From a virus, in UHGV virus genome UHGV-0208736: a DNA stretch of 31,562 nucleotides, one strand, 5' to 3'. The notes under the pieces were generated by a model. The model ran no database searches. It saw only the letters and a list, made by a program, of their open reading frames with translations, and was not told the origin of the DNA. This document shows positions 2,245 to 14,859 of this stretch, piece after piece. Positions within the stretch are counted from its first letter, which is position 1. The number at the start of each line of letters is the position of its first letter. A program made the position numbers and the translations under genes.

Positions 2245-2268
2245 GGCCCCAAACGGGGCCCTTTCTCT
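2245..2268. terminator. bidirectional rho-independent terminator between convergent tailspike and minus-strand replication operon
   Basis: GGCCCC-AAAC-GGGGCC hairpin (2245-2260) followed by CTTTCTCT on plus strand; on the minus strand the same hairpin follows the TAG stop of the small ORF ending at 2267. Confidence 0.6.
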
Positions 2269-2404
2269 ACTCTTCTGATAACTTCTCCAGTACAAACGCC
2301 AGTTGCGCATTAGCCGCGTCTCTTCGCTGGCGTAGTCGTAGAACCTCTTCTTCGAGTTCCTTGATACGTTTTTGCAATGCCGGAATCGGGGCTATGATGT
2401 TCAT
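2267..2404 (-). CDS. unannotated 45-aa coiled-coil / leucine-zipper-like peptide (MNIIAPIPALQKRIKELEEEVLRLRQRRDAANAQLAFVLEKLSEE)
   Basis: ATG 2404-2402 overlaps the TGA stop of the upstream TOPRIM gene (ATGA); GAGGA-type SD about 10 nt upstream; heptad-like hydrophobic spacing; ends at TAG abutting the terminator; below the 60-aa cutoff of the ORF track. Confidence 0.35.
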   Translation of the reverse strand: MNIIAPIPALQKRIKELEEEVLRLRQRRDAANAQLAFVLEKLSEE

Positions 2405-2916
2405 CTGGTAAATTTCCTCGCAAGATACGTTATTTCTTCTTCACAAAGTTCATCAAGGTCGTTAGATACAAATCCTCTGGTGAATGTTTTGCTGAACTTT
2501 AATCCGGCTTTATCATTGTCACCAGCGCACACCCATTCATACGGCAAAAGTGACATTTGCTGCCGTAAATCGGCGGGTATATTCGACCCAAGTGCGCTTA
2601 CAGCATTGAACCCGCAATTCATCAAAGCAACAGCTTTAAATATGCTTTCGGTAACAAATACGGTCCCGCTTTCCGGAAGGTATTCCAACCCCCATAAACA
2701 AGGTCTTGTTGTTCTGGTGAAGTACCGCGCGTCTTTAGGGTTTTTACAGTTCTTTTCAGCATGTGGCTTGTAATGCTGGTATCCGCGTAGCCTACCGTCA
2801 AAGCCCCACAAGTAGAATGTAGCAACGCCAGGGGCTAAGACTACCCGGAGACGGTCGGCGTCAAACCCACGCGCCAGCAGATGAGCTTTAAGTAGAAACT
2901 CTTCGAAATCCATCAT
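2401..2916 (-). CDS. TOPRIM-domain protein (DnaG-like primase catalytic core fragment)
   Basis: 171 aa; conserved Glu in VFVTESIFKA and DxD in WVCAGDNDKAG match the TOPRIM signature; start ATGATG overlaps helicase stop (ATGA). Confidence 0.5.
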   Translation of the reverse strand: MMDFEEFLLKAHLLARGFDADRLRVVLAPGVATFYLWGFDGRLRGYQHYKPHAEKNCKNPKDARYFTRTTRPCLWGLEYLPESGTVFVTESIFKAVALMNCGFNAVSALGSNIPADLRQQMSLLPYEWVCAGDNDKAGLKFSKTFTRGFVSNDLDELCEEEITYLARKFTR

Positions 2917-4337
2917 TTCTTACCTCGTCTCTTCATGTAATTAAGCAATTCTTCCTGTACCGATTTCTTCTCGTCTGTACGCGCGGCAACAACCTCGTCC
3001 AGCGTGTCTTTAGCAACGATGTGATAGAGGAATACCGGGCGTTCGTGGCCTGCCTGCTTCTGGCGGACCGGGCCTATACGCTCGACAACCTGCAAATAGT
3101 GCTCAAGGTTCCAGCCTTGCGAAATAAACGCCAGATGGTGACCGCCGTCCTGTAAATTCAAACCATGCCCGGCTGACGCAGGATGCACGCATAAGATTTC
3201 GATTTCGCCTCGGTTCCACGCCTCCATCTGCTTATTACCCTTCGCACCTTTAGAAAATGCCTGTGCCTGAGGGAATCGCTTAAGGATGCGTTCCAGTTCG
3301 TGCTTAAACTGATAGGCCACCAGTAACGGCGCACCCTGTAACTCCTCGACAATGGATTCCAGCGCATCCAGTTTCGTGTCATGAACTTTCTCCCAGTCTT
3401 TTGTTGCTTCGCCGTCCGGCCCTGATATGTACACTGCGCCGGATGCAATCTGCAAGCACTTCGACGTCTTCGCCGCTGCGTTAGCTGCTTCAACTTCTCC
3501 GCTTTCCAGCTCCGCGAATAGCTTCTCTTCCATGTCGATGTACGCCTGACGTGCTTTTTTCGGCAGGTCAATTTCAACCGGCACGATAATCGGCGCTTCA
3601 CACCCAAACCACTCGGCGGCGTCAATCGTGAGGCTGATGTCTTTCATCTTCTGGTGAATTTCGTTATCGGCGCCCGGGCGTGCGTGATACTCGCGGGCCA
3701 TCGCCGACTTACCTTTCTGTACAGAGTTAAACCATCGGTCGGTGAATGCCGTGTACGAAGAGCCGAGGCGCTCGCCTGCATCGATAAACCAGTTCTGACC
3801 CCACAAGTCCTTGAGGCCGTTTGGTGATGGCGTACCCGTCAGGTTAATGAAGCGCTTAACCTTTCCGAACGCCACTTTGCTAAGCGCCTTTGCCCTCTTG
3901 CTACCACCAGAACGGCTACGGAACGATTTCAGCTTCGTGCTTTCATCGGCAACGATAACAGTAAAAGGCCAGTCGTCTTTGCCGTAGTAGTCAATCAGCC
4001 ACTCGATAACTTCGTAGTTTGTACACACCACGTTAGCGTCTGACTCCAGCGCCGCGATACGGCGCTTCTCTGAACCTGTCGCATCGACGACGCTCAGACA
4101 TGGGAATTGCCATTTCTCTTGTTCCGCGGGCCATGTACCCGATGCAACGCGCAACGGGGCGAGGATTAACACCCGGTCCTCTTCCGTAAGCTGCCCGTTG
4201 CGGAACAGGCGGTTTAGAACCCACATTGTCGACGAGGTCTTGCCGCCGCCCATACCGCACCATATATTGCAACGTGGGTGCTGTAACATAAACGACGTCA
4301 TTATTTTCTGATATTCCCTGCGCCTAAACTTACTCAT
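2913..4337 (-). CDS. ATP-dependent DNA helicase, superfamily 2 (SNF2/DEAD-like)
   Basis: 474 aa; Walker A GMGGGKTS, DExx-like box IVADESTKL; start ATG overlaps stop of upstream HNH gene (ATGA); SD GGGGAG upstream. Confidence 0.7.
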   Translation of the reverse strand: MSKFRRREYQKIMTSFMLQHPRCNIWCGMGGGKTSSTMWVLNRLFRNGQLTEEDRVLILAPLRVASGTWPAEQEKWQFPCLSVVDATGSEKRRIAALESDANVVCTNYEVIEWLIDYYGKDDWPFTVIVADESTKLKSFRSRSGGSKRAKALSKVAFGKVKRFINLTGTPSPNGLKDLWGQNWFIDAGERLGSSYTAFTDRWFNSVQKGKSAMAREYHARPGADNEIHQKMKDISLTIDAAEWFGCEAPIIVPVEIDLPKKARQAYIDMEEKLFAELESGEVEAANAAAKTSKCLQIASGAVYISGPDGEATKDWEKVHDTKLDALESIVEELQGAPLLVAYQFKHELERILKRFPQAQAFSKGAKGNKQMEAWNRGEIEILCVHPASAGHGLNLQDGGHHLAFISQGWNLEHYLQVVERIGPVRQKQAGHERPVFLYHIVAKDTLDEVVAARTDEKKSVQEELLNYMKRRGKK

Positions 4338-4831
4338 GCCTTGAACTCCCCGAAGTATATTTCCGCGGCTCTTTGGTATACGCGCGACGCTTCTTCTATA
4401 GTGTCAAAATAGCCAAGGTGGATGTATTTGTTATTGACGCCTATTCTGGCGCGCCACCTGCCAGAGGGTATTTGGTAGACCCCTATCGCACCGCTAGTGT
4501 TATGTGGTGAGCAGTCTCGGTTCTGAATCTGCTGGCTCCTGGTTGCTGGCCTTATATTATTTATGGCGTTATTAGCCCTGTTACGGTCTTTATGGTCAAG
4601 CTCACCATTATGATATTCTCCGTAGACGAAAGCCCATGCCAGATGGTGGGCTTTTATTCTTACACCGGAGACCGTAATAACTATGTATCCTTTGTCGTTT
4701 GGTCCCCCGGCTACCTCCCCCGCATTTCTACCTTTTATGCTTACTTTCCGTGTAAATATGCCTGTTTCGGGGTCATAGTTAAGAAGACGTTTCGCCTCCT
4801 CAATATCAGGCCTTCTAGTTAATTTACTCAT
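4334..4831 (-). CDS. HNH homing endonuclease with AP2-type DNA-binding domain
   Basis: 165 aa; HNH core HHLAWAFVYGEYHNGELDHKDRNRANNAINNIRPAT; AP2-like GVYQIPSGRWRARIGVNNKYIHLGYFDTIEEASRVY; ATGA overlaps on both sides. Confidence 0.8.
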   Translation of the reverse strand: MSKLTRRPDIEEAKRLLNYDPETGIFTRKVSIKGRNAGEVAGGPNDKGYIVITVSGVRIKAHHLAWAFVYGEYHNGELDHKDRNRANNAINNIRPATRSQQIQNRDCSPHNTSGAIGVYQIPSGRWRARIGVNNKYIHLGYFDTIEEASRVYQRAAEIYFGEFKA

Positions 4832-5019
4832 TTCAACACCAGTACCAGCTCTTTACGTCCAAACGCCGTAACGTTACCTGTTACATCTTCGATAACCAGT
4901 TTACCGTTCGACTCTACGAACACCGTATCAACAGCAACAGGCTGGCGGGTTTTAACATTGAAAATCATGTCGCCAGGTACGATGTCACGTGCTGGTTTGC
5001 GGTCATATTCATGTTTCAT
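4828..5019 (-). CDS. hypothetical protein (63 aa), first gene downstream of promoter P1
   Basis: ORF with AAGGAA SD 7 nt upstream of ATG at 5019; stop overlaps HNH start. Confidence 0.5.
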   Translation of the reverse strand: MKHEYDRKPARDIVPGDMIFNVKTRQPVAVDTVFVESNGKLVIEDVTGNVTAFGRKELVLVLK

Positions 5020-5049
5020 TTCTCAATTCCTTATATTGTTGGTGTAGGA

Positions 5050-5334
5050 TTAACTATAATAGTTAGCTATTAGGTCGTCAACCTGTTTAAACGAACCAAC
5101 GACAAAAACATTTGCGCCACGTTTACGCATACGCTCGTGTTCTCGTAACTGGTGCGGGTCAGGTTTCGTGTTTTCGTCTTTCTTCACCTCTACGAACCAG
5201 ACGGTGCCGCCGGGGAGAATTACCAGCAGGTCGGGGGCGCCGGAACGCCCCTCGTACGAAAGTTTACGAACGAGGCCGCCCAGGGCCTCGAATCGCTCTT
5301 TTGCGTATTTCTGTACGCGTCCCTCTTTAGTCAT
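5050..5334 (-). CDS. VRR-NUC domain nuclease (PD-(D/E)xK superfamily)
   Basis: 94 aa; PDLLVI...VWFVEVKK...PHQLREHERMRKRGANVFVV matches VRR-NUC D...E-x-K pattern. Confidence 0.7.
   Translation of the reverse strand: MTKEGRVQKYAKERFEALGGLVRKLSYEGRSGAPDLLVILPGGTVWFVEVKKDENTKPDPHQLREHERMRKRGANVFVVGSFKQVDDLIANYYS
5053..5081 (-). promoter_or_regulatory. sigma70-type promoter P1 (minus strand): -35 TTGACG, 17-nt spacer, -10 TATAGT; contains 20-bp conserved core AACTATAATAGTTAGCTATT (plus 5052-5071)
   Basis: Reverse complement reads TTGACG-N17-TATAGT; the 20-bp core is identical to 11861-11880 and near-identical to 9362-9381; lies at the 3' end of the VRR-NUC gene immediately upstream of gene 4828..5019. 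Confidence 0.5.
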
Positions 5335-5483
5335 GGCCGCAGAATCCAGGTAATGAAAGCCCCGCCCAGAAGGGCAACACCGACAAACTTAAAGAACAGG
5401 CTATAACAGAACACCGCGGCTATTCCTGCACCGAGTAGCAGTGCCAGCATGGTTACTGTCGTCCAAAATACAAACATTGTCAT
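5331..5483 (-). CDS. unannotated 50-aa hydrophobic (membrane) peptide
   Basis: MTMFVFWTTVTMLALLLGAGIAAVFCYSLFFKFVGVALLGGAFITWILRP; ATGA overlap with upstream ORF stop and with VRR-NUC start; GGAG 10 nt upstream; below track cutoff. Confidence 0.4.
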   Translation of the reverse strand: MTMFVFWTTVTMLALLLGAGIAAVFCYSLFFKFVGVALLGGAFITWILRP

Positions 5484-5674
5484 AATAAAGGCTCCGCGTC
5501 CGGGTTACGCAGGAAGTACGCTTGGTAGATGTCGTGCTCCGTGTAGTAAACACCTTTGTGCGTACACCCGGCGCACGCATCGCTAAAGAACCCATCACCC
5601 ATTACCATGATAAATTCCCATTCCGGCATATCCACCAACGCAGCCAGTTTCTTACTAAATTGTTTGTTACTCAT
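5480..5674 (-). CDS. hypothetical protein (64 aa from ATG 5674; the track start at 5683 is GTG)
   Basis: MSNKQFSKKLAALVDMPEWEF...; GAGGGG SD upstream; ATGA overlaps at both ends. Confidence 0.45.
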   Translation of the reverse strand: MSNKQFSKKLAALVDMPEWEFIMVMGDGFFSDACAGCTHKGVYYTEHDIYQAYFLRNPDAEPLL

Positions 5675-5760
5675 AATACGCACCCCTCGCGTTTCGTATG
5701 TTCAATCCCGCAGCGCGGACAGATTCGGCAGTCTTCTTCATAGAACCAGTAAATTTTCAT
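5671..5760 (-). CDS. unannotated 29-aa Cys-rich peptide, possible zinc ribbon (MKIYWFYEEDCRICPRCGIEHTKREGCVL)
   Basis: CxxCxxC...C spacing; ATG overlaps upstream stop (ATGA) and its TGA overlaps the next ATG; weak SD so translation would rely on coupling. Confidence 0.3.
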   Translation of the reverse strand: MKIYWFYEEDCRICPRCGIEHTKREGCVL

Positions 5761-5888
5761 TCCAGCACCCACAGATAAATTGCGATAAACATGCCAAATA
5801 CGGCAACCATCATGCCGTATTGACCCTCGTGACAGTAGACACCGGCGGCGAATCCAGCCAGTACTGCGATAATCAGTTTACTTAGCAT
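5757..5888 (-). CDS. unannotated 43-aa hydrophobic (membrane) peptide
   Basis: MLSKLIIAVLAGFAAGVYCHEGQYGMMVAVFGMFIAIYLWVLE; ATG at 5888 lies 8 nt inside the 3' end of the DNA polymerase gene with AGAGGT SD 7 nt upstream. Confidence 0.35.
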   Translation of the reverse strand: MLSKLIIAVLAGFAAGVYCHEGQYGMMVAVFGMFIAIYLWVLE

Positions 5889-8148
5889 AACGGTACACCT
5901 CTTCCCCGGCCCATGTTAGTGGGAACCCTTTGGCCCATTCAGGTAATGAGCATAACAGGTCGCCCATCTCTTTAACCGTGTACTCCGGTGTGTCTGGTGT
6001 TTCGGCGACACACTCATCGTGTACGTGAAGTACAATTGGGTAGCCCGCTGCCTCGACCGTCAGGAGTCCGTTGACCAGTAAATCACGGCACAACGCTTGA
6101 ATGATGTTTTCACACAATTTTCCGCCGTGTGTGTACAAAGTCGTCCACTGGCGGGTGGTCTGATTTTCGCCCTGGTATTTAATGCGAACGTTAGTTGTTA
6201 CGCGCCCATCCTCGTCGGTCTCTTTAGTGACGCTTAAACCTATACCAGGGTAGGACATGATGCGCCCAGACGGCAGTTCCACACACAACCACCAACCCGG
6301 CACAAAGTTACCCTGTCTGTCTTTCTCTTTAGTACGCCAGATGCGAATAGCCCTGTCGCCGTTAAGGCGTACTCTGGCCCCCGCCCAAAACTCTCGTCCC
6401 GGATTTCTGATTGCAGCAATCACCGAATCCTTAAGGTCGTTCCAGAATCTCACTGTTTCCGGATGGGCCTCGCGCCACATGCGCTTGATAGCGTCGCAAG
6501 TGCGCCAGACTTCCTTAGGCAACACGTAAGAGGCCCGTTCGTCCTTTTTACCAGGTTTTGGCGGCCGCTTAGCCTCCTGAATCCGCGCCCATTCATAGCC
6601 TCGGGCAGTGGCGGCCCATATATGGTCAGGGAATGTCCCCCGCATTGTCTCCGTCATTTTAAAGAGGTCCAGCCCATAAGTTTTAGCCATAGTCATGAAG
6701 GCCCCTACACCTCCCTCGTAGCCGAGGCCCAGCTCGCAACATTTCCCGACCTGTCGTAGGTCTTTACGGGTGGCTTTCAGCTCTATAGGATCCATGCCAA
6801 ACATCTTGCCCGCAGTGGCGCAATAAATATCAATCCCCGCGCGGAACGTCTCAAGGGCAGATGTCTCCCCCGCCGTCCAGGCTAACCCACGGCCTTCCAC
6901 GTTCGAGTAGTCGGCAACGAGTAACTTATTACCTTTTTCCGGGATGATGCAGCTGCGGACAGTCGAGGCCGTTAGCTTAGATACATCAAAACGGCGATGC
7001 GCCCGGCCCTTTAAAAGCAAATTGATGCCGAAGGATAGCGGGTTAAGCCTGCGGTTCCAGTCTTCGTCGGACTCCCACGGCTGGCGTACGAGTTTCTTTT
7101 CCTCGTTAGTCGGGTCGTCGTGGTAGTACCCACGCGACAGGTTCTGCGGCTGGAACCCTTTGCCCGCAAATCGTAAAGTGCGCTTTGCCCCACCGTACTG
7201 GATGCAACCACGGCGTCGTCCGTCTTTGGACCGTCCTAGCAGGAGCGGTTTATATTTTGTTGACGCCGTGGAGGCCGCGCCGAGGCGCATCTCAATGATT
7301 GTGCGCGCATCGTTAGGTAAGTCGTCGTCCTCTAGCAAACCTTCGAGCGTTGCTTTCTGCGCATTATAAATATTGTAGGCCGGTGCCAGTTCCCGAAGGA
7401 TTGGCAGGAAGTCTTTGCCCGTTAGCTTCCCGCCAAATTTCGCGCGGGCCTCGTTTTTTAGCTCTTGCTTGTGACGTTCAACTGCCGCGACCGCCGCCTC
7501 AGCAAGAGCCGTATCGACAAAGAAGCCTCGGTCGTTGATTAGCTGGTCCAGTTCCAGTACACGGTCTTCGAACTCAGAGTTACCCCAACGCGGCAGCTTA
7601 TGGAAGACCTCACGCATTGCAGTGATGTCGCTTACGGCGTACTTGATGAACAGCGCCCACTCGTCCGGGTGTGTTTCCGCGGTGTAGCGACGGATTTTGT
7701 AGTTCTTCGGCGTCGGTTTAGAGAAACGCTGAATCAGCGCCTTGCCCCGCTTATCTTTCGCGTTGTCCGCAGATACTCCCAGCACTTCGCATAATGCATC
7801 GAGTGAACCCGGCAGCGCGTGGCGAAACGCCCAAATCATCGTATCAATGGTGTTGCTTACCGGAATATCAAAACCCCAGCAGTGCTTCATGATGAGCCTA
7901 TCGAACATTAAAAAGTTATGGCCCACGATTTTCATACGTCCGCGCATAACATTACGGAGCGCCATGCGTAGGCTTATTGGCATTACTGGTTCGGAAGTGC
8001 AATCCCATACTTCTACTGGACCATCATCAACGGCATACGTACAAATTATAACCTCTGTCGTTGGGTGCTCCGCATACGCATACGACCCGACTTTCTTTAA
8101 GTCTGCTTCGGAGAATGTCTCGGTATCCAGGTATAATAAACTAGTCAT
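5878..8148 (-). CDS. DNA polymerase, family A, with N-terminal 3'-5' exonuclease domain
   Basis: 756 aa; Exo I motif YLDTETFS; polymerase motif A LLVADYSNVEGR; motif C VLHVHDECV; AAGGAA SD upstream of ATG 8148. Confidence 0.85.
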   Translation of the reverse strand: MTSLLYLDTETFSEADLKKVGSYAYAEHPTTEVIICTYAVDDGPVEVWDCTSEPVMPISLRMALRNVMRGRMKIVGHNFLMFDRLIMKHCWGFDIPVSNTIDTMIWAFRHALPGSLDALCEVLGVSADNAKDKRGKALIQRFSKPTPKNYKIRRYTAETHPDEWALFIKYAVSDITAMREVFHKLPRWGNSEFEDRVLELDQLINDRGFFVDTALAEAAVAAVERHKQELKNEARAKFGGKLTGKDFLPILRELAPAYNIYNAQKATLEGLLEDDDLPNDARTIIEMRLGAASTASTKYKPLLLGRSKDGRRRGCIQYGGAKRTLRFAGKGFQPQNLSRGYYHDDPTNEEKKLVRQPWESDEDWNRRLNPLSFGINLLLKGRAHRRFDVSKLTASTVRSCIIPEKGNKLLVADYSNVEGRGLAWTAGETSALETFRAGIDIYCATAGKMFGMDPIELKATRKDLRQVGKCCELGLGYEGGVGAFMTMAKTYGLDLFKMTETMRGTFPDHIWAATARGYEWARIQEAKRPPKPGKKDERASYVLPKEVWRTCDAIKRMWREAHPETVRFWNDLKDSVIAAIRNPGREFWAGARVRLNGDRAIRIWRTKEKDRQGNFVPGWWLCVELPSGRIMSYPGIGLSVTKETDEDGRVTTNVRIKYQGENQTTRQWTTLYTHGGKLCENIIQALCRDLLVNGLLTVEAAGYPIVLHVHDECVAETPDTPEYTVKEMGDLLCSLPEWAKGFPLTWAGEEVYRYAK

Positions 8149-8614
8149 GGCAATAAAATTCCTTATGCAGTTTTTCTCTTAATTTCTTTACCGCGCTTTC
8201 TGCTTCTTCAAGAGTTCCGTAGCTACCAGCATTGTAACTTTTGTAGTTAAAGTGTACCCGCCCATAAAATCGGTTGCCGTTTTTAACTACTCCCTTAACT
8301 CCCGTTCTAGCTCCCTTATTTTTAGCGTTTCGCACATTATCTGCGGTGGTTGCTTTCCTTAGGTTAGAAATCCTATTGTCTAACCTGTCTCGGTTTATGT
8401 GGTCAAGAGGTCCCTCGGGCCATTCACCGTACTCGAAAAACCAAGCAAGCCTGTGGGCCATGTAATATCTGCCCATATAAGGTATTCGCCAGTATCCACT
8501 ACTATTGATGCATCCTGCGATGTCTCCAGGTTTTCCTCGTCTGTACGTAGGTTGTATCCATGTGAATATCCCGGTTTCTCGGTTATAGCTAAGAAAATCT
8601 TTTATATGTTCCAT
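8141..8614 (-). CDS. HNH homing endonuclease with AP2-type domain (start taken at ATG 8614; the track start at 8638 is TTG)
   Basis: HNH core MAHRLAWFFEYGEWPEGPLDHINRDRLDNRISNLR; AP2-like GVKGVVKNGNRFYGRVHFNYKSYNAGSYGTLEEAESA; AT-rich relative to neighbours; stop overlaps polymerase start by 8 nt. Confidence 0.75.
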   Translation of the reverse strand: MEHIKDFLSYNRETGIFTWIQPTYRRGKPGDIAGCINSSGYWRIPYMGRYYMAHRLAWFFEYGEWPEGPLDHINRDRLDNRISNLRKATTADNVRNAKNKGARTGVKGVVKNGNRFYGRVHFNYKSYNAGSYGTLEEAESAVKKLREKLHKEFYCHD

Positions 8615-8626
8615 TCTGACTCCGGT

Positions 8627-8649
8627 AAAAAGGCCCAATGAAGGGCCTT
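8627..8649 (-). terminator. rho-independent terminator on minus strand after the SSB-like gene
   Basis: Minus-strand RNA: AAGGCCC-UUCAUU-GGGCCUU followed by UUUACC; 20 nt downstream of the TAA at 8669-8671. Confidence 0.45.
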
Positions 8650-8668
8650 AGTTAAATTGATTCATATA

Positions 8669-9307
8669 TTAGCGGCGGCGACGTTCGCGACGCGGTGCAG
8701 GTTCATCATCCTCAAGGTCGTTAAGGTCTACGGTAGCTCCGGCACCGCCGAATGCTTCGCCATCATCCTTAAAGCGAACACCGAGGAGTTCTACGCCGAG
8801 GTTTTTATAAGTTGAGTACCAATACACATCAACTACGATATTAGCGTAACAACCAGAATAAACTTCCTTACCTTCTACATCGTCACCTGCTTCGGTAAGG
8901 CCCTTGACTACACGCCCGCCGCGTTGGCACTGCACCTCACCCTCAGAAGTCGCGATCATAGGTTGCTTACGGCTCTTAGCCATGAAATACAAACCTTCCT
9001 CAAGCCCTTCAATCGGTGAATCACGCTGTGCGAGGTCGCGGAACGCACATTTATCTGCATGGTTTCCGAAGCCGAAGTTTTTTGACATCCACTTTTCGGC
9101 GGCAGAAGCACTACCTAACGCTTCAGTCATAACTTCAGTTACAGCGTCTTCAATTTTCTCAATTTGCGGGTCGTCTTTATCCAGATACGCTGTAAGCTGG
9201 TATTGGCCTTCTACTTGTTGCCCCTGACTATTTACACGGTCCGCTGCTTTCTTATAAACGTCTACCCATCCGATACGCACGTTGCTCAGTTTAACTTTGA
9301 TACCCAT
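8669..9307 (-). CDS. possible ssDNA-binding protein (T7 gp2.5-like / DUF2815-like), acidic C-terminal region
   Basis: 212 aa; N-terminus MGIKVKLSNVRIGWVDVYKK...GQYQLTAYLDKDD resembles the gp2.5-like SSB family pattern (from memory); C-terminus DLNDLEDDEP; GAGGAA SD upstream; first gene after promoter P2. Confidence 0.4.
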   Translation of the reverse strand: MGIKVKLSNVRIGWVDVYKKAADRVNSQGQQVEGQYQLTAYLDKDDPQIEKIEDAVTEVMTEALGSASAAEKWMSKNFGFGNHADKCAFRDLAQRDSPIEGLEEGLYFMAKSRKQPMIATSEGEVQCQRGGRVVKGLTEAGDDVEGKEVYSGCYANIVVDVYWYSTYKNLGVELLGVRFKDDGEAFGGAGATVDLNDLEDDEPAPRRERRRR

Positions 9308-9362
9308 ATCTCGATTCCTCAGTTTTCAGTTTACTCCGGGAACTGCCCGGCCAGTGATTAGA

Positions 9363-9392
9363 ACTATAATAGCTAACTATTCGGGTTGTCAA
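9363..9392 (-). promoter_or_regulatory. sigma70-type promoter P2 (minus strand): -35 TTGACA, 18-nt spacer, -10 TATAGT; core AACTATAATAGCTAACTATT (plus 9362-9381)
   Basis: Reverse complement reads TTGACA-N18-TATAGT; the core differs from P1/P3 only by inversion of the central 4 bp; located in the 89-bp intergenic gap upstream of the SSB-like gene. Confidence 0.5.
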
Positions 9393-9396
9393 CACT

Positions 9397-9570
9397 TTAT
9401 TTAAGTTTCTTCGGAACTACCTTATAAATATAGGGCTGCACCGCCTCATGCTTTGAGTTCTTCTCTTCTGCAATTTTGTCGGCGTCGGCGCGTTTAGCGT
9501 GAACAGAGACAATATCAAGTTCTTGAATAGAGTATCGGCGGTGATATCGCGTGAGAATATAAACCATCAT
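9397..9570 (-). CDS. hypothetical protein (57 aa from ATG 9570)
   Basis: MMVYILTRYHRRYSIQELDIVSVH...; strong SD GAGGAGGA 6-7 nt upstream; ATG overlaps stop of the exonuclease gene (ATGA). Confidence 0.45.
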   Translation of the reverse strand: MMVYILTRYHRRYSIQELDIVSVHAKRADADKIAEEKNSKHEAVQPYIYKVVPKKLK

Positions 9571-10808
9571 TCTAAATCCTCCTCTGTTACCTGATTCCAC
9601 TCAGGCCGTTTGTCGTCTGTCGTTGCGACACATGGTGCGCCAGGCTTACGGGTAATGAAGTCTTTCAGTTCTTCTTCCGGTATGACTTTAACCGCTTCGG
9701 TCGGCGTCATGAGCACTTCTTTAGTCAGCTTGTAACCGTATTTCTCGTATACCGCCTCTGCATCTTTCCATGCACGATTACCTGGGCGACCCTCAACCAG
9801 TTTGTACCCAGGCACTTTCTTACCGGAATGCAACGCGGCGGCCATAGCTTTTTCAACCTTGTCGATGTGCTGGCGCAGGAACGGCAACTTCTCATACTCA
9901 GCGACGAGTTGCTCTGGTGTCAGTTCCAGCACAAAGTTGTCCCCCAGTTCTTCCGCCAGTACAGAATTAACCGTCTTTGTACGCGCGGCGCACTGTTCTG
10001 AGAACCGGCACCACTGGCAGCCATCGACAGACGGCTTGAAGTCCGACGCTTTCAGGTTCTTCTTGCCACGGAAATAGGCGTCAAGCGCTAACAGCGCCCG
10101 TTTCTGTGCGAACTTAGCAAACAGTTCCAGACCTTCAACCGAGATGTCCCACTCCGAAGCGCCACCAGCGTACGGCTGGAAGATGACCAGACGAACGATT
10201 GTTATGTTATAACGTCTCTTGAGTCGGCGATAAACACCGAGAGCGTAAAGCATAAGCTGCTTGTTTTCTTTCGCTTCGACACGATGCCGTCCTGTTTTAA
10301 GGTCTCCGATGATGAGCATATGCCCGTCGGTGTTCGCCAGTTCCTGTACGGCAACAAGGTCAGCGGTTCCGAACGTCTCAACGCCTTCGTAGCCCGGATG
10401 CAATACCTCAGTAAGATTGACCCGCATTTCCAGCTTGGCGTAAGTCGCTACGTCGATAATCAGTTTGCAGTAGTCGGTGTACTTGCGCACCTGCTCAATC
10501 ATGTCCGCCGTAATCAGTACCGCGCCTTTCATCGGACTGATTAGCGCCTCAATCGGCCCTTTACCTTCATCCAGAACATAAGCACCAACTTCACGCTCTA
10601 ACGGCAGCGCAGTTCCGCGGATATAGGCGTTGAGATGTACCTCAGCTATGGTGTGCATAGCTGTGCCTAATACCGCAGCTTTACCGGACGTGTTAGGGAT
10701 ATCTTTTTCACAGGCCAGTGATGCTGGGCAGGTTAACCACTTTTTAGCACCGGATGGCGACAGTAAGGCGTGCACATCATTATTGCCGCCGCGTTCTTTT
10801 AAAATCAT
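9567..10808 (-). CDS. Cas4/RecB-like PD-(D/E)xK exonuclease with putative Fe-S cysteine cluster and C-terminal extension (start at ATG 10808; the track start at 10823 is GTG)
   Basis: N-terminal Cys (WLTCPASLAC) plus C-terminal C-x2-C-x5-C (CQWCRFSEQC); nuclease-like core IIGDLKTGRH...QLMLYALGVY; GGAG SD upstream; ATG overlaps stop of upstream gene. Confidence 0.6.
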   Translation of the reverse strand: MILKERGGNNDVHALLSPSGAKKWLTCPASLACEKDIPNTSGKAAVLGTAMHTIAEVHLNAYIRGTALPLEREVGAYVLDEGKGPIEALISPMKGAVLITADMIEQVRKYTDYCKLIIDVATYAKLEMRVNLTEVLHPGYEGVETFGTADLVAVQELANTDGHMLIIGDLKTGRHRVEAKENKQLMLYALGVYRRLKRRYNITIVRLVIFQPYAGGASEWDISVEGLELFAKFAQKRALLALDAYFRGKKNLKASDFKPSVDGCQWCRFSEQCAARTKTVNSVLAEELGDNFVLELTPEQLVAEYEKLPFLRQHIDKVEKAMAAALHSGKKVPGYKLVEGRPGNRAWKDAEAVYEKYGYKLTKEVLMTPTEAVKVIPEEELKDFITRKPGAPCVATTDDKRPEWNQVTEEDLE

Positions 10809-11077
10809 GCCCTGTTCTCCCACTGGTCTATTAAATGTCGTGTCTTATGGTCGCAATGTAAGGCCCAGCCATACATCGACTCGAAGACATAAAGGTCAGG
10901 CCTGGCGAAAGTCGTGCGCTTAATCTGCGACACGTGACGGCCTATATCTTTAGGTCGCGGCGCTTTGCCTAAGTACGCCATCTCTTCCATCTGGTGCGCA
11001 CCGGACGGCGCACGCAACAGCCATAGCGCCTCTGTGTTATCCCGACTGTCAACGGCGCGGTAGAGTTGGTAAATCAT
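10805..11077 (-). CDS. hypothetical early protein (90 aa)
   Basis: ORF preceded by conserved initiation cassette ACTGAGGGTCGGAATT-ATG. Confidence 0.45.
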   Translation of the reverse strand: MIYQLYRAVDSRDNTEALWLLRAPSGAHQMEEMAYLGKAPRPKDIGRHVSQIKRTTFARPDLYVFESMYGWALHCDHKTRHLIDQWENRA

Positions 11078-11088
11078 AATTCCGACCC

Positions 11089-11304
11089 TCAGTAGTACGG
11101 TGCGAATTCACCCTTAACGGCGGTACGTACGGACATAAGATTATGTTTTCTGTCCGGGTAATTATCCGCCCACACCAGATTATTATCGTAATCTAGAACG
11201 CCGTACCAACATCCGTTTAATACGAAAAATCGTTGTTCACCCGTGGTTGCCGCGCTTATTTCCACAACGATTTGCTCATTTATCACTTTATATACGTTAC
11301 ACAT
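11089..11304 (-). CDS. hypothetical early protein (71 aa)
   Basis: ORF preceded by conserved initiation cassette ACTGAGGGCCGGAATT-ATG. Confidence 0.45.
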   Translation of the reverse strand: MCNVYKVINEQIVVEISAATTGEQRFFVLNGCWYGVLDYDNNLVWADNYPDRKHNLMSVRTAVKGEFAPYY

Positions 11305-11322
11305 AATTCCGGCCCTCAGTTT

Positions 11323-11346
11323 GTTGCCCTCACGTATGAGGGCAAC
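11323..11346 (-). other. stable intergenic RNA stem-loop (10-bp stem, 4-nt loop) without U-tract
   Basis: GTTGCCCTCA-CGTA-TGAGGGCAAC perfect inverted repeat between the acidic early gene and the next gene; followed by AAACUGAGGG rather than a U-run on the minus-strand RNA. Confidence 0.45.
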
Positions 11347-11359
11347 ATAAGTTAAGTAG

Positions 11360-11830
11360 TTATTCTTCTTCGAAATACTTGTTCTTGATTGCCGTCAGGC
11401 GTTCAAGATATTCTGCAAGGTCTTCATCTTTAATCGCGGCAATCTTCATCTTCTTACCGGTGAACTCTTCCAGCAGTTCATCAGAATCATCGCACGCAGC
11501 ATCGCTTGGGCCCTCGTTAATCGCATCGTCGATAGCCTGAATCTGGTCACGCAGAGACTGGTAATCGACTTCTTCCTTCTCTTCTTCCGGCTCTGGCGCT
11601 GGCTCCTCTACTTTAGCTTTACGAGGCTTGCGTTTCGGCTTCTCTTCTTCTGCGGGTTTAGTGTCGACGATGTCTTCACCTTCGACTGGGATTTCTTTTG
11701 TTGCTTCTTTTGCAACAGTAGGCTCGATTGTTGCAGTTTCCGCAACGACAACCTGTTTTGCACTGTTCGCCGCAATCAGTTCGTGGGCAACTACGAAACG
11801 TTCCAGTAATTTTAAGAATTGGTCTAACAT
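11360..11830 (-). CDS. highly acidic early protein (156 aa), first gene of the early operon; candidate DNA-mimic / anti-restriction or host-takeover factor
   Basis: Very Glu/Asp-rich (EEEKPKRKPRKAKVEEPAPEPEEEKEEVDYQ...DDSDELLEEF...KDEDLAEYLER); strong SD GAGGAGAG; directly downstream of promoter P3. Confidence 0.5.
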   Translation of the reverse strand: MLDQFLKLLERFVVAHELIAANSAKQVVVAETATIEPTVAKEATKEIPVEGEDIVDTKPAEEEKPKRKPRKAKVEEPAPEPEEEKEEVDYQSLRDQIQAIDDAINEGPSDAACDDSDELLEEFTGKKMKIAAIKDEDLAEYLERLTAIKNKYFEEE

Positions 11831-11861
11831 TTGTTTCTCTCCTCTCGTTTGGTATGGGCTA

Positions 11862-11890
11862 ACTATAATAGTTAGCTATTCACATGTCAA
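11862..11890 (-). promoter_or_regulatory. sigma70-type promoter P3 (minus strand): -35 TTGACA, 17-nt spacer, -10 TATAGT; core AACTATAATAGTTAGCTATT (plus 11861-11880)
   Basis: Reverse complement reads TTGACA-N17-TATAGT; 20-bp core identical to P1; about 30 nt upstream of the early operon start codon. Confidence 0.55.
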
Positions 11891-11934
11891 TGGGCTTTTC
11901 TAAAATAATTAATATGGTACTATTCACATATCAA
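11876..11934 (+). promoter_or_regulatory. candidate plus-strand promoter (TTCACA-N16-TAAAAT) with two 15-bp direct repeats CTATTCACAT(G/A)TCAA as putative operator sites
   Basis: Repeats at 11876-11890 and 11920-11934 (14/15 identical, 44 bp apart); repeat 1 overlaps the -35 of both divergent promoters; repeat 2 lies between the predicted TSS and the SD of the HTH gene. Confidence 0.35.
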
Positions 11935-11954
11935 CTGACTAAGGAGTAATTGAC

Positions 11955-12170
11955 ATGCAACCATCTGAACTAGGCATCCGTGTAGAACAACGCCGTAAAG
12001 AACTCGGCCTCTCCCAGCGCCGTCTGGCTGTCCTGGCTGGCGTTTCCCAGGGCGCGATTAACCAGCTGGCACTCGGTGTAACCCAGGACGTCCGCCCGGC
12101 AACGCTGTTTAAACTGGCGGAAGTGCTGGAAGTAGATGCCAAGTGGCTGGCGTTCGGTGAAGGGGCTTAA
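11955..12170 (+). CDS. Cro/C1-type (XRE family) helix-turn-helix transcriptional regulator
   Basis: 71 aa; RKELGLSQRRLAVLAGVSQGAINQLALG is a canonical XRE HTH; SD AAGGAG 8 nt upstream; only plus-strand gene inside the minus-strand module. Confidence 0.75.
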   Translation: MQPSELGIRVEQRRKELGLSQRRLAVLAGVSQGAINQLALGVTQDVRPATLFKLAEVLEVDAKWLAFGEGA

Positions 12171-12186
12171 CGCCCCCTTTCTTTTT
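12162..12186 (+). terminator. rho-independent terminator after the HTH regulator gene
   Basis: GGGGC-TTAAC-GCCCC hairpin (stop codon within loop) followed by CTTTCTTTTT. Confidence 0.5.
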
Positions 12187-12188
12187 AC

Positions 12189-14450
12189 CTATTCCAAATC
12201 TTCCTCGGTTACTATCAGCATCTCATTCGGTTCGTATATTGTCTTCGGAATCTTGTTATCGTTTATGCCCCACGGCAACCGGTATTGCTTAGGTATAGGC
12301 CTGTTGTTGTTATCCAGACCTGAGACGATAATCCCGGCCTCGTGCATCTCCTCCAGTTTCTTTCGAAGGTCGTTATTAGCATTAATTGGTACGCCGTAAC
12401 TATCTTCTTTCGCCGCTTTGACGATAGCTGACATAGAGAACCCTCGTTTATCGTCACCCTGCTCCTGCAATTTACCCAATGCGTAAATAACCGTAGCCTC
12501 TTTGGTGTCCAGTTTCTCGAACTGGCCTACCTTTTCTTTAACGGCTTCCTTCTGTTCGTCGGTCAGACCTTCTACTTTCTTCACGAAGACAGAGAATGCG
12601 TTGAAGTTAACAAAGACATCAATATGCGGATTTCCTGCGTCAAAATCGCGTACATCATCACTACTATACCCTTCCGGAAGACCCATGAAGTTGTGAGTTG
12701 GTTCTTTCTTTTCTGGCGGCTCCGCTATCTGAATCTTCTGTATTACGAACCCTCTGGCTTTTTGCCGTTCTCCGTTTCGGTTCTTTATGTGGTACAGGTT
12801 TATCTCTAAGTTATTGTCGTTGTCCGGCTTATGCAGGAACATCCCGTTGTCGATGGAGTTGTGGAAATCACTACCACCCTTCGGCATCATGCCGTTCTCG
12901 GATGGTACTGTTTCGTCGATGTTTTTAGTCGGGTGCACCATAGCGCCTACCGCGGCGTTAAGCGTCGACGCTATTTCGTTAAGCGCCTGCGCCGCCTCTT
13001 TCATCGACCTGTTGTCGTTCTCGTCAAAACCAGGTATGCAAGTTTGCAGGGTATCAAACGTAACCTTTACAATTTTCTCTTCACCGGCAACACGACGCAT
13101 CATTCTCACCGCCTGGCGGCGCCACACCTCATCGAGTAAGTTACACCCTTCCGCGACACAATCGATGATGTGCAAGCGGTCAAGGCTATCGCCGAGGGCA
13201 ATCTGTAAAGATTTTTTATGCCTCTCGAACGACTGCGCACCTTCTCCAGCGAAAATGAACGCATGCCCTTCAGCAACCTCTGCCCCGCCGAACGCATATC
13301 TTTTTTCGGCAGCAATAGCGGCGTCAATCGCCATACTAAATGTTGACTTACCAGTGTGGGACTTTGCACAAATGTAGAATGATTCGTTAGTCTGCATAAG
13401 ACCGTCCACTACGGAGTAAGCAGGTTCTTTTTCTACTTCCGGCTCGTCTTCAAGGTCTTCAAGCGTGCAAGTTACAGGCTCCTCGTTCTCTGTGCGGTGC
13501 AGTTCTTCAATATCTTCATCCGGTAAATCAGGCAGAGCCGCACGGATGCTATTAATACTGATAGGTTGCTTGTCTACGTTAAGCTCGTCCGGAAGACCGC
13601 ACATACGCAGGGCCAAATGCTGCCGACGGTTTAGCTCAGTGCAAGCGCCATTGTTTGTATGCTGGCAGACAAAGCGCACTTCTTTACCGTCAAGCATGAT
13701 GCTTGTGGAGCCTTTGCCGGTATGCAGATGTTCGTTAGGGCATGGAACTTCGTACCCGCGCCCGGAAGATAAAGCGTCAAGGCCAAGCTCCGCTTCGCAG
13801 AAATGCGCTATATCAGCGTTAAGCCCATGCTCATCGGCAGCAAGTGTCTTAGCTTCACGTTTACGCAGCCCCATCTCTTCGGCTTTCTTGATGTACCGCT
13901 CCGCACGGATAACGCGCCCTTCAGTAACAGTTATCTTTGACTCTTTATGAGGCAGGTAGATAAGGCGGTTGCCGTCTTCGGTGCAGTGGTCGCGCAACGC
14001 TTCGTCTATTTCTAACTCCGCACAAATAGCACGTTGCACCATCCATGCATCGTTAGAGTTAAATGGAGTGCGGGCAGGTACGAGAACGCGGAAAGCGTAG
14101 TCACCGTTTTTACACGCGTGCTGGTGCGACGCCGTTGTGTGCAGAATATTGAAGAACGTCGCGTTCTTGAATTTGCGGGTAAGGTCGCGGTACTGAGTAC
14201 GGTTGAGATGGTCAAAGTCGAACTTAACCACACTATCTTCCAGAATCGCGTTCTTACGGCGACCCCCAACAGGTGCAATTGCTTTCTGCTTAATCTTGGC
14301 AGCGTCGTACTCTTCCTTAGACCACGACGGATCCACGGATAAACGCTTGGATGTATCGCAGACATACTCTACGAACTGCTCCAGCGGCATTTCACGAGCT
14401 ACAGGGTTTTTATCGAATGTGTTGCGCAGTGTCGCAAAAACAATATTCAT
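12189..14450 (-). CDS. DNA primase-helicase-like replication protein: archaeo-eukaryotic primase (AEP)-type N-terminal domain plus P-loop NTPase domain
   Basis: 753 aa; AEP-like motifs KFDFDH (DxD) and TTASHQH (sxH); Walker A AKSHTGKST; Walker-B-like LHIID. Confidence 0.6.
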   Translation of the reverse strand: MNIVFATLRNTFDKNPVAREMPLEQFVEYVCDTSKRLSVDPSWSKEEYDAAKIKQKAIAPVGGRRKNAILEDSVVKFDFDHLNRTQYRDLTRKFKNATFFNILHTTASHQHACKNGDYAFRVLVPARTPFNSNDAWMVQRAICAELEIDEALRDHCTEDGNRLIYLPHKESKITVTEGRVIRAERYIKKAEEMGLRKREAKTLAADEHGLNADIAHFCEAELGLDALSSGRGYEVPCPNEHLHTGKGSTSIMLDGKEVRFVCQHTNNGACTELNRRQHLALRMCGLPDELNVDKQPISINSIRAALPDLPDEDIEELHRTENEEPVTCTLEDLEDEPEVEKEPAYSVVDGLMQTNESFYICAKSHTGKSTFSMAIDAAIAAEKRYAFGGAEVAEGHAFIFAGEGAQSFERHKKSLQIALGDSLDRLHIIDCVAEGCNLLDEVWRRQAVRMMRRVAGEEKIVKVTFDTLQTCIPGFDENDNRSMKEAAQALNEIASTLNAAVGAMVHPTKNIDETVPSENGMMPKGGSDFHNSIDNGMFLHKPDNDNNLEINLYHIKNRNGERQKARGFVIQKIQIAEPPEKKEPTHNFMGLPEGYSSDDVRDFDAGNPHIDVFVNFNAFSVFVKKVEGLTDEQKEAVKEKVGQFEKLDTKEATVIYALGKLQEQGDDKRGFSMSAIVKAAKEDSYGVPINANNDLRKKLEEMHEAGIIVSGLDNNNRPIPKQYRLPWGINDNKIPKTIYEPNEMLIVTEEDLE

Positions 14451-14575
14451 TTCTTTTTCTCCGCACGTTCTAAGGCTTCCTGCATACGACGCATTGCGCG
14501 GTTCATCTTTACCGGTGCGAAGAAATCAGCGCCGTGTTTCTGGCGGCGTAGCTGTGGAACTATTAACTTCGTCAT
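14447..14575 (-). CDS. unannotated 42-aa basic peptide (MTKLIVPQLRRQKHGADFFAPVKMNRAMRRMQEALERAEKKK)
   Basis: AAGGA SD upstream of ATG 14575; TGA overlaps primase ATG (ATGA); below track cutoff. Confidence 0.35.
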   Translation of the reverse strand: MTKLIVPQLRRQKHGADFFAPVKMNRAMRRMQEALERAEKKK

Positions 14576-14625
14576 TGTATAATCCTTGTGCTTACTTTGA
14601 TGATTTGTACTTTAACCCCGACGTT

Positions 14626-14859
14626 CTAGCGTTGGGGTTTCTTTTGCCTACGTGCAGCATTAATCCACTCTCCTTCGCTCTGGTAGAAACTGCAATCAAG
14701 AATATCCTCTATAGAAAATTTAACTATTTTAGTGGGTCCACAAAAGTTATAAGGGAAAAGTTCTACATAACACCCATCGTCAGTTATATTTGACGCAATC
14801 TTGAAATAATATTTAACGCTGCCGTCTTCACGGAAGCTACAACCCATACGCCCAATCAT
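14626..14859 (-). CDS. hypothetical protein (77 aa), AT-rich gene
   Basis: ORF with ATG overlapping stop of the upstream HTH gene; markedly lower GC than flanking genes. Confidence 0.45.
   Translation of the reverse strand: MIGRMGCSFREDGSVKYYFKIASNITDDGCYVELFPYNFCGPTKIVKFSIEDILDCSFYQSEGEWINAARRQKKPQR

Follow-up and report, generated by a model that had tools for sequence, protein, structure and literature searches.

A phage replication operon that probably pairs one AEP primase-helicase with a primase-derived, Rad-family anti-defense cassette

We analyzed the replication operon of a 31,562-nucleotide stretch of the virus genome UHGV-0208736 (here called the window), and in particular two of its products, a 753-amino-acid (aa) replication protein and a stand-alone 171-aa protein with a TOPRIM domain. 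A first-pass annotation, made from the sequence, had read the products of both open reading frames (ORFs), whose stated positions we confirmed on the minus strand, as two different primase types in one replication module. An archaeo-eukaryotic primase (AEP)-helicase and a DnaG/TOPRIM-type protein do lie in one operon, but the second-primase function implied for the smaller protein found little support in the analysis described here. We conclude that the operon probably encodes one AEP primase-helicase plus one primase-derived anti-defense cassette of the Rad (retron anti-defense) family, and not two replication primases. The window belongs to a Kagunavirus-like siphophage of the Guernseyvirinae: a 12.6-kb query covering the operon was ∼88% identical to Guernseyvirinae siphophages, with Raoultella phage RP180 and Escherichia phage Golestan (genus Kagunavirus) as the best matches.

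The small protein has the following parts.

2401..2916, minus strand: 171-aa Rad-family protein, a predicted DnaG/T7-gp4-type RNA-polymerase core (Pfam Toprim_2, phrog_849, AlphaFold, Foldseek)
About aa 1-80 of that protein, minus strand: N-terminal subdomain of the RNA-polymerase core
About aa 84-171, minus strand: TOPRIM fold of the RNA-polymerase core
2512..2649, minus strand: TOPRIM acidic residues E90 (2647-2649), D133 (2518-2520), and D135 (2512-2514), invariant in homolog alignments
2635-2637, minus strand: K94, at the position of the second acidic residue of EGxxD in DnaG/T7 primases
2449..2460, minus strand: D153-L-D155-E156 motif, where DnaG has its "DPDE" acidic cluster

The DnaG-type TOPRIM signature first noticed in this protein, a conserved Glu plus DxD, was borne out. 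E90 and D133/D135 align with the E. coli DnaG sequence VVEGYMD...YDGDRAG, and the protein matched both Pfam Toprim_2, just over threshold (E = 1.1e-4; 22.9 bits against a cutoff of 22.1), and PHROG 849, "DNA primase" (E = 1.7e-48). Because searches of the Protein Data Bank (PDB) sequences gave no usable match (an E value of only ∼0.4 to DnaG with the single sequence and no match with the profile), a comparison of folds was needed. An AlphaFold (AF2) model based on an alignment of 16 homologs had a predicted local distance difference test (pLDDT) score of 94. The solved structures that Foldseek ranked best against it were the T7 gp4 primase fragment 1nui, gp4 1q57, and the DnaG cores 1dde and 1eqn, with essentially full-chain alignment and a probability of 1.00; the TOPRIM-only RNase M5 was a far weaker structural match. 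The model indicates that the 171-aa protein is a whole DnaG/T7-gp4-type RNA-polymerase core minus the zinc-binding domain, and not the TOPRIM fragment that the first-pass annotation had seen in it.

Residue-level comparisons agree with this fold. The chain begins exactly at DnaG motif I, HLLxRG (RPD motif I), which is conserved in the homolog alignment of the family together with R64-Y65. With the T7 gp4 and DnaG cores the protein shares the same two-subdomain fold over its full length, the Glu, DxD, and DxDE-like acidic clusters, and the N-terminal RG and (K/R)Y motifs. It differs from them in three respects. No zinc ribbon or other zinc-binding domain was found in a Pfam scan, and the chain starts at motif I; a helicase or C-terminal helicase-binding domain is absent, the chain ending ∼20 residues past the TOPRIM fold; and a Lys is present within EGxxD. 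This residue, K94, is invariant among close homologs; its counterpart in the alignments is the Asp of EGYMD in DnaG and the D in gp108, the primase of the T5-like phage Th1. Most members of the 171-aa family have ES(I/V)FKA at the primase EGxxD position. Two other matches were set aside: one of the 171-aa protein to the RT-DnaG-like DRT model of PADLOC (E = 3e-4), which is weak, TOPRIM-level, and uninformative, and one of the homolog profile to a Dam gene downstream in L010-L012, which we read as an artifact of a chimeric, apparently frame-shifted alignment row (P0018).

The large protein and its domains are as follows.

12189..14450, minus strand: 753-aa replication protein with a predicted AEP domain, a zinc finger, a superfamily 4 (SF4) RepA/DnaB-like helicase, and a C-terminal domain
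13851..14450, minus strand (about aa 1-200): predicted AEP (Prim-Pol fold) domain, with invariant R64, D78, D80 (motif I), T106, R121, and D154 (motif III)
13626..13757, minus strand (aa 232-275): zinc-finger-like CHCH/C element (C237, H243, C262, H264, C270)
12921..13451, minus strand (aa 334-510): SF4 (RepA/DnaB-like, RecA-fold) helicase core (Pfam AAA_25, E = 9e-17; PHROG 19 and 243, "DnaB-like replicative helicase")
13344-13370, minus strand (aa 361-369): Walker A motif AKSHTGKST, from the sequence
12192..12710, minus strand (aa 581-753): C-terminal region, no Pfam match over threshold

Residues 1 to 200 of the large protein are predicted to adopt the AEP/Prim-Pol catalytic fold. The best structural matches of this domain were the Prim-Pol, LigD-Pol, RepB', and HP0184 AEP structures (2atz, 2iru, 6sa0, 6zp9, 7nqd, and 3h20), with which it shares a DxD...D acidic triad. 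D78-x-D80 and D154 are invariant in 12 homologs down to 19% identity, including a Jerseyvirus homolog and one fused to VapE; the motif I and motif III residues were assigned by order and spacing, not by superposition. The two AEP motifs previously pointed out in this protein fared differently: DxD (D78/D80) is invariant, but sxH (S108-H109) is not strictly conserved. In the region S108-H109-Q-H111, position 109 is H or D and H111 is present in 10 of 12 alignment rows, and H111 appears to be the better candidate for the motif-II histidine. A profile of the AEP domain gave no match to PDB sequences, and BT4734-like_N was matched below threshold (E = 0.016 to 0.067) in two or three of the homologs of the domain. 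Our confidence in the AEP assignment of the N terminus is moderate to good, the call coming from a shallow-alignment model with no curated sequence family behind it.

Downstream of this domain, the zinc ligands are nearly invariant in homologs of the Kagunavirus/Dhillonvirus type. The P-loop ATPase reported by the first-pass annotation was recovered both as the AAA_25 match and as the Walker A motif at residues 361 to 369. Profile searches gave a divided outcome for the domains named there: Toprim was matched, but PriCT, D5_N, and the Pfam AEP families were not. In the 753-aa protein, Pfam searches at E values up to 0.1 found no D5_N, PriCT, or SF3 ATPase domain, and by its sequence the ATPase classifies as SF4/RepA-like, not D5/SF3. 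The C-terminal region may be a winged-helix DNA-binding domain.

The AEP domain family is very narrow. An exhaustive HMMER search of 1.84 billion representatives returned 14 proteins at an E value of 0.001 or better, namely 10 full-length fusions to the same type of helicase, 1 fusion to a VapE ATPase, 2 short fragments, and 1 repetitive protein that was matched over the zinc-finger stretch only. Word-indexed searches, with sequence or profile, returned almost nothing for the domain; the exhaustive search and a tblastn search of phages supplied the alignment. In gp43 of corynephage BFK20, a RepA-like SF4 helicase is joined to an AEP domain (cited in Kazlauskas et al. 2016). Compared by described domain order, gp43 and the window protein are alike, the AEP domain occupying the N terminus and the RepA-like RecA-fold helicase coming after it, but the AEP domain of the window belongs to a very narrow, divergent family that no Pfam model matches. 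Over the AEP and zinc-finger part, one homolog (P0023) has 71% identity with the window protein, yet its helicase domain is of the Jerseyvirus type (FIVEGYMPSNCIW...), a type different from that of the window; the comparison suggests recombination at the AEP/helicase domain boundary.

The small gene is set between two neighbors, and its junctions with them can be placed exactly.

2913..4337, minus strand: SNF2-family (SF2) helicase, 474 aa, adjoining the 171-aa gene upstream (Pfam SNF2-rel_dom, E = 1.9e-12, and Helicase_C)
2913..2916, minus strand: ATGA overlap between the SNF2 helicase stop and the Rad-like start, the upstream junction of the cassette (from the sequence and an indel alignment with phage G AB-2017)
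2267..2404, minus strand: 45-aa ORF with a start codon that overlaps the Rad-like stop (ATGA, 2401-2404; from the sequence and the comparison with phage G)

Searched by megablast, the small gene was present in 65 phage records, compared with 456 records that matched the module; the latter number counts any partial match to the 12.6-kb query, and 65/456 is a rough frequency only. All 65 copies are intact and are 88 to 96% identical in DNA. In the Kagunavirus phage G AB-2017 the small gene is missing, although the AEP domain is 99.4% identical to that of the window. The gap is a clean, ORF-sized indel bounded by two ATGA junctions, one where the helicase gene stops and one where the 45-aa ORF begins; in this phage that ORF directly follows the helicase gene. 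Phage Jersey has an HNH gene at the slot of the small gene and no match to the family in the 20-43 kb of its genome examined. The Dhillonvirus SSL-2009a, in which the AEP-helicase is present (39% identity), has no TOPRIM ORF anywhere in its genome, and a methyltransferase comes next after its SNF2 gene. Since the phages without the small gene are viable isolates, the small protein cannot be an essential part of the replisome. The small gene is a facultative, dispensable cassette at the 3' end of the operon; its description as a fixed part of the replication module has to be given up, and its T5-family homolog has been reassigned from primase to Rad.

Members of the 171-aa family are stand-alone proteins of 163 to 190 aa that occur in very different phages. 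The T5-like phage Th1 carries a homolog and, elsewhere in its genome, a DnaB-like helicase and a complete DnaG primase; that primase, gp108, contains Zn_ribbon_DnaG, DNAG_N, and Toprim domains, has an N-terminal extension in the alignment, and is ∼23% identical to the window protein. In a Proteus Privateervirus the homolog lies near a gene annotated "DNA primase/helicase," and further homologs are found in Pseudomonas phage pf16, Vibrio phages, and Erwinia jumbo phages. A 109-kb metagenomic phage-like contig encodes a Rad-like gene (L013:10001-10525; 57% identical) in yet another cassette context, surrounded by nucleotide-metabolism genes, an HD_4 protein, a ParDE-like toxin-antitoxin pair, and UmuDC-like genes.

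Rad of T5-family phages (SP15 ORF75, T5 ORF071) is a 189-aa protein with a primase/TOPRIM domain, of which 541 homologs have been counted in phage genomes (Azam et al., bioRxiv 10.1101/2023.03.15.532788). In that study, Rad rescued lambda vir from the retrons Ec48 and Se72; it reduced retron noncoding RNA (ncRNA) and multicopy single-stranded DNA (msDNA) but left the transcripts of the reverse transcriptase and the effector unreduced; and the mutants R13E, P33T, I88T, D135H, and E156H had less activity (10.1101/2023.03.15.532788). In a later Nature Communications paper, Rad is cited as an established anti-defense protein (PMC12673091). Rad of T5 was formerly annotated as a primase, and BF23, compared with T5, has lost the gene.

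The window protein is 47% identical to a 189-aa protein of Th1, gp064 (E = 5e-38; 170 of 171 residues), and both fall in phrog_849. We infer that gp064 is a Rad ortholog from its size, its family, and a match of residues, as all five mutated Rad residues coincide with those of gp064 at a single offset of +17. Three of the five are kept in the window protein: R16 (Rad R13), D135, and E156. Like T5-family Rad, the window protein is a stand-alone primase/TOPRIM core in the range of ∼170-190 aa, encoded by an accessory gene that is gained or lost between close relatives and that records have historically called "DNA primase." The settings differ, the window gene ending a replication operon beside an SNF2 helicase and T5-like Rad lying in a tRNA-rich anti-defense island. 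The residue numbers published for the Rad mutants are those expected if the Th1 protein (annotated at L002:4950-5519) began at its internal Met18; its length would then be ∼172 aa, like that of the window protein, and the annotated start codon of T5-family Rad may be 17 codons too far upstream.

In the explanation that we favor, the dedicated primase of the operon would be the AEP domain together with the downstream zinc finger of the 753-aa protein, and fusion to an SF4 RepA/DnaB-like hexameric helicase would unite priming and unwinding in one polypeptide. The 171-aa protein would descend from the catalytic core of a DnaG/T7-type primase and act outside the replisome, as the product of an optional cassette translationally coupled to the SNF2 helicase gene. 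There it would shield the phage from host retrons by lowering retron noncoding RNA and msDNA, its TOPRIM acidic center (E90, D133, D135, D153, E156) acting on retron nucleic acid. By homology to Rad, anti-retron activity is the most likely function of the small protein; the nucleolytic chemistry ascribed to it is presumptive, as is the catalytic activity of the AEP domain. Among the roles suggested earlier for the small protein, a nuclease-like TOPRIM enzyme comes closest to this explanation, and a second primase is the least supported.

Several observations weigh against this explanation. The Rad identity of Th1 gp064 depends on the comparison given above, and no record names gp064 Rad. At two of the five probed positions the window protein differs, with Y35 for P33 and V88 for I88; the P33 position is P in most family members, and the change from I88 to V88 is conservative. 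Anti-retron activity is known only for the homologs of SP15, T5, Privateer, a Shigella phage, and vB_Sen_I1 (10.1101/2023.03.15.532788). These are all T5-like or Privateer-type proteins, 45% and 39% identical to the window protein, respectively; T5-type and Privateer-type Rad proteins are 47% identical to each other. Membership of vB_Sen_I1 in the Guernseyvirinae was considered and ruled out, as it is a 112-kb T5-like phage. Furthermore, the Rad data come from a preprint and concern cells, in which ncRNA and msDNA dropped; they do not show nuclease activity in vitro. The 171-aa protein itself retains every feature of a primase core but the zinc-binding domain and one acidic residue, and it may have some polymerase activity. 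With respect to the large protein, no Pfam AEP family was matched over threshold, residues 1 to 333 being without a Pfam match, and the protein of the Jerseyvirus SB3 (L004:12231-14417) lacks the zinc ligands (MPATPEHAAQ in place of VPCPNEHLHT) while keeping DxD...D. Phage Jersey has likely undergone the same loss (L015:16142-18328); its large protein is of the Jersey type and equal in length to that of SB3.

An obvious alternative is that both proteins are real primases. The small core would then prime the lagging strand or re-prime, docked on one of two helicases (the 753-aa protein or SNF2) and borrowing a zinc finger in trans, and the AEP would make the origin primer. T7 naturally makes a zinc-finger-less form of gp4, and the zinc-binding domains of T7 gp4 and DnaG act in trans. 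The fold of the small core is complete and confidently predicted, with E90, D133, D135, D153, R64, and Y65 conserved; its gene is coupled to a helicase gene in the Guernseyvirinae and in an independent metagenomic lineage; and a CHCH/C zinc finger is conserved in the large protein. However, the Jerseyviruses that carry the small gene have no zinc ligands in the large protein, so use of that zinc finger in trans cannot be general, and we rejected it as a general model. We also dropped the idea that zinc-finger loss tracks the presence of the small gene, as phage Jersey has neither the zinc ligands nor, in the part examined, the small gene. Most relatives, including the one with the 99.4%-identical AEP domain, do without the small gene and are all viable isolates; the homologs of T5-like, pf16, and Vibrio phages are not beside any helicase; the T5-family homolog has a demonstrated anti-retron phenotype; and K94 replaces the metal-binding Asp of primases. 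In light of these points, two working primases in one replisome seem unlikely.

We likewise consider it unlikely that the AEP-like domain is inactive, an origin-binding or structural relic, with priming left to host DnaG or, where present, to the small TOPRIM protein. The lack of a Pfam AEP model over threshold, the marginal E value in Foldseek, the imperfect conservation of the motif-II His, and the missing zinc ligands of the Jerseyvirus protein would all fit a relic. The invariance of D78, D80, and D154 down to 19% identity, even where the domain is fused to a VapE ATPase, fits a catalytic triad and not a relic, and no other candidate for a primase is present in the genomes of phages that lack the small protein.

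Two further readings are improbable. In one, Rad-type proteins would use primase-like chemistry, in place of simple RNA cleavage, against retrons, by binding the msr-msd priming site or by RNA synthesis or extension, which is conceivable because they keep the complete primase catalytic core and not just a TOPRIM nuclease fold; in the other, the Guernseyvirinae protein would double as an auxiliary zinc-finger-less primase working with the SNF2 helicase or the AEP-helicase, an idea that arises from the translational coupling of the small gene to the SNF2 helicase gene. Finally, that the small ORF is a functionless, decaying remnant of a full-length primase gene is very hard to credit: the zinc-binding and helicase-binding domains are absent and split or frame-shifted copies exist (P0018, phrog_17952, phrog_14043, and two-piece matches in Erwinia jumbo phages), but the domain boundaries are exact, the size is steady at ∼165-190 aa across very different phage groups, the catalytic residues are invariant, the predicted structure has a pLDDT of 94, and 65 genomes carry intact copies at 88-96% DNA identity.

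The pairing of the two folds was rightly singled out as uncommon. Viruses with double-stranded DNA have either an AEP or a DnaG homolog, the sole exception being phage RM378 (Kazlauskas et al. 2016). By report, this Rhodothermus phage resembles the window phage in having AEP and DnaG-type folds in one genome; the DnaG-type protein of the window is a zinc-finger-less Rad homolog. By fold, the window phage and 64 other records break the either/or rule; by function, the rule probably holds for true primases.

Both components are of known kinds, and near-identical genes are already public. Those of the small protein are labeled "DNA primase," "toprim domain-containing protein," or "hypothetical protein"; in RP180 the counterpart of the 753-aa protein is annotated "replicative helicase-primase" and that of the 171-aa protein "DNA primase." The "DNA primase" labels in many records of Guernseyvirinae, T5-like, and other phages imply a two-primase replisome that probably does not exist. 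Relabeling the gene as a Rad-family anti-retron candidate alters host-range prediction on retron-bearing E. coli and Salmonella, and several such phages were isolated as candidates for phage therapy or biocontrol. The analysis also defines a very narrow, previously unmodeled AEP domain family fused to SF4 helicases. The prediction that Rad folds as a complete primase core whose metal site bears a Lys specific to the family provides a concrete handle on mechanism, and the main remaining interest is why an anti-retron protein would keep an entire primase core with a Lys in that site.

By ORF calls and Pfam, the leftward replication operon spans 2267-14859. Beyond the genes already given, it includes the following, with a hairpin at its downstream edge.

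9567..10823, minus strand: DUF2800 / PD-(D/E)XK nuclease (Pfam, E = 1.9e-67)
8669..9307, minus strand: Enc34-type single-stranded DNA-binding protein (Pfam PF10991, E = 1.5e-15)
5878..8148, minus strand: family A DNA polymerase with a 3'-5' exonuclease domain (Pfam)
5050..5334, minus strand: VRR-NUC-like nuclease (weak Pfam match, E = 8.8e-4, under the curated cutoff)
2245..2260, no strand assigned: GC-rich hairpin GGCCCCAAACGGGGCC, lying where the tailspike gene and the leftward replication operon converge

The hairpin sequence is kept in phage G and is likely a terminator. The RP180 counterpart of the VRR-NUC-like gene is annotated "Holliday junction resolvase." The SNF2 helicase matched the PADLOC models ZorD, DpdE, and DrmD (E = 1e-13 to 1e-5), matches that probably reflect generic SNF2 homology and are no sign of membership in a defense system. 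The 45-aa ORF (2267-2404, minus strand) is conserved downstream of the helicase gene or the Rad gene and probably forms a coiled coil; several records call it "exonuclease subunit SbcD," which looks like a propagated misannotation.

The replication operon carries many variable insertions. Two HNH homing-endonuclease-like genes lie within it (4334-4831 and 8141-8638, both minus strand), one with HNH_3 and AP2 and the other with HNH_3 only. The region of the first (4334-4831) holds a DNA methyltransferase in RP180, and phage G AB-2017 has neither HNH gene. Just downstream of the AEP-helicase gene, on the opposite strand amid the leftward genes, is a gene for a 71-aa helix-turn-helix protein (Cro/CI/DicA-like; 11955-12170, plus strand), which is annotated as a repressor in relatives, though these phages are described as lytic.

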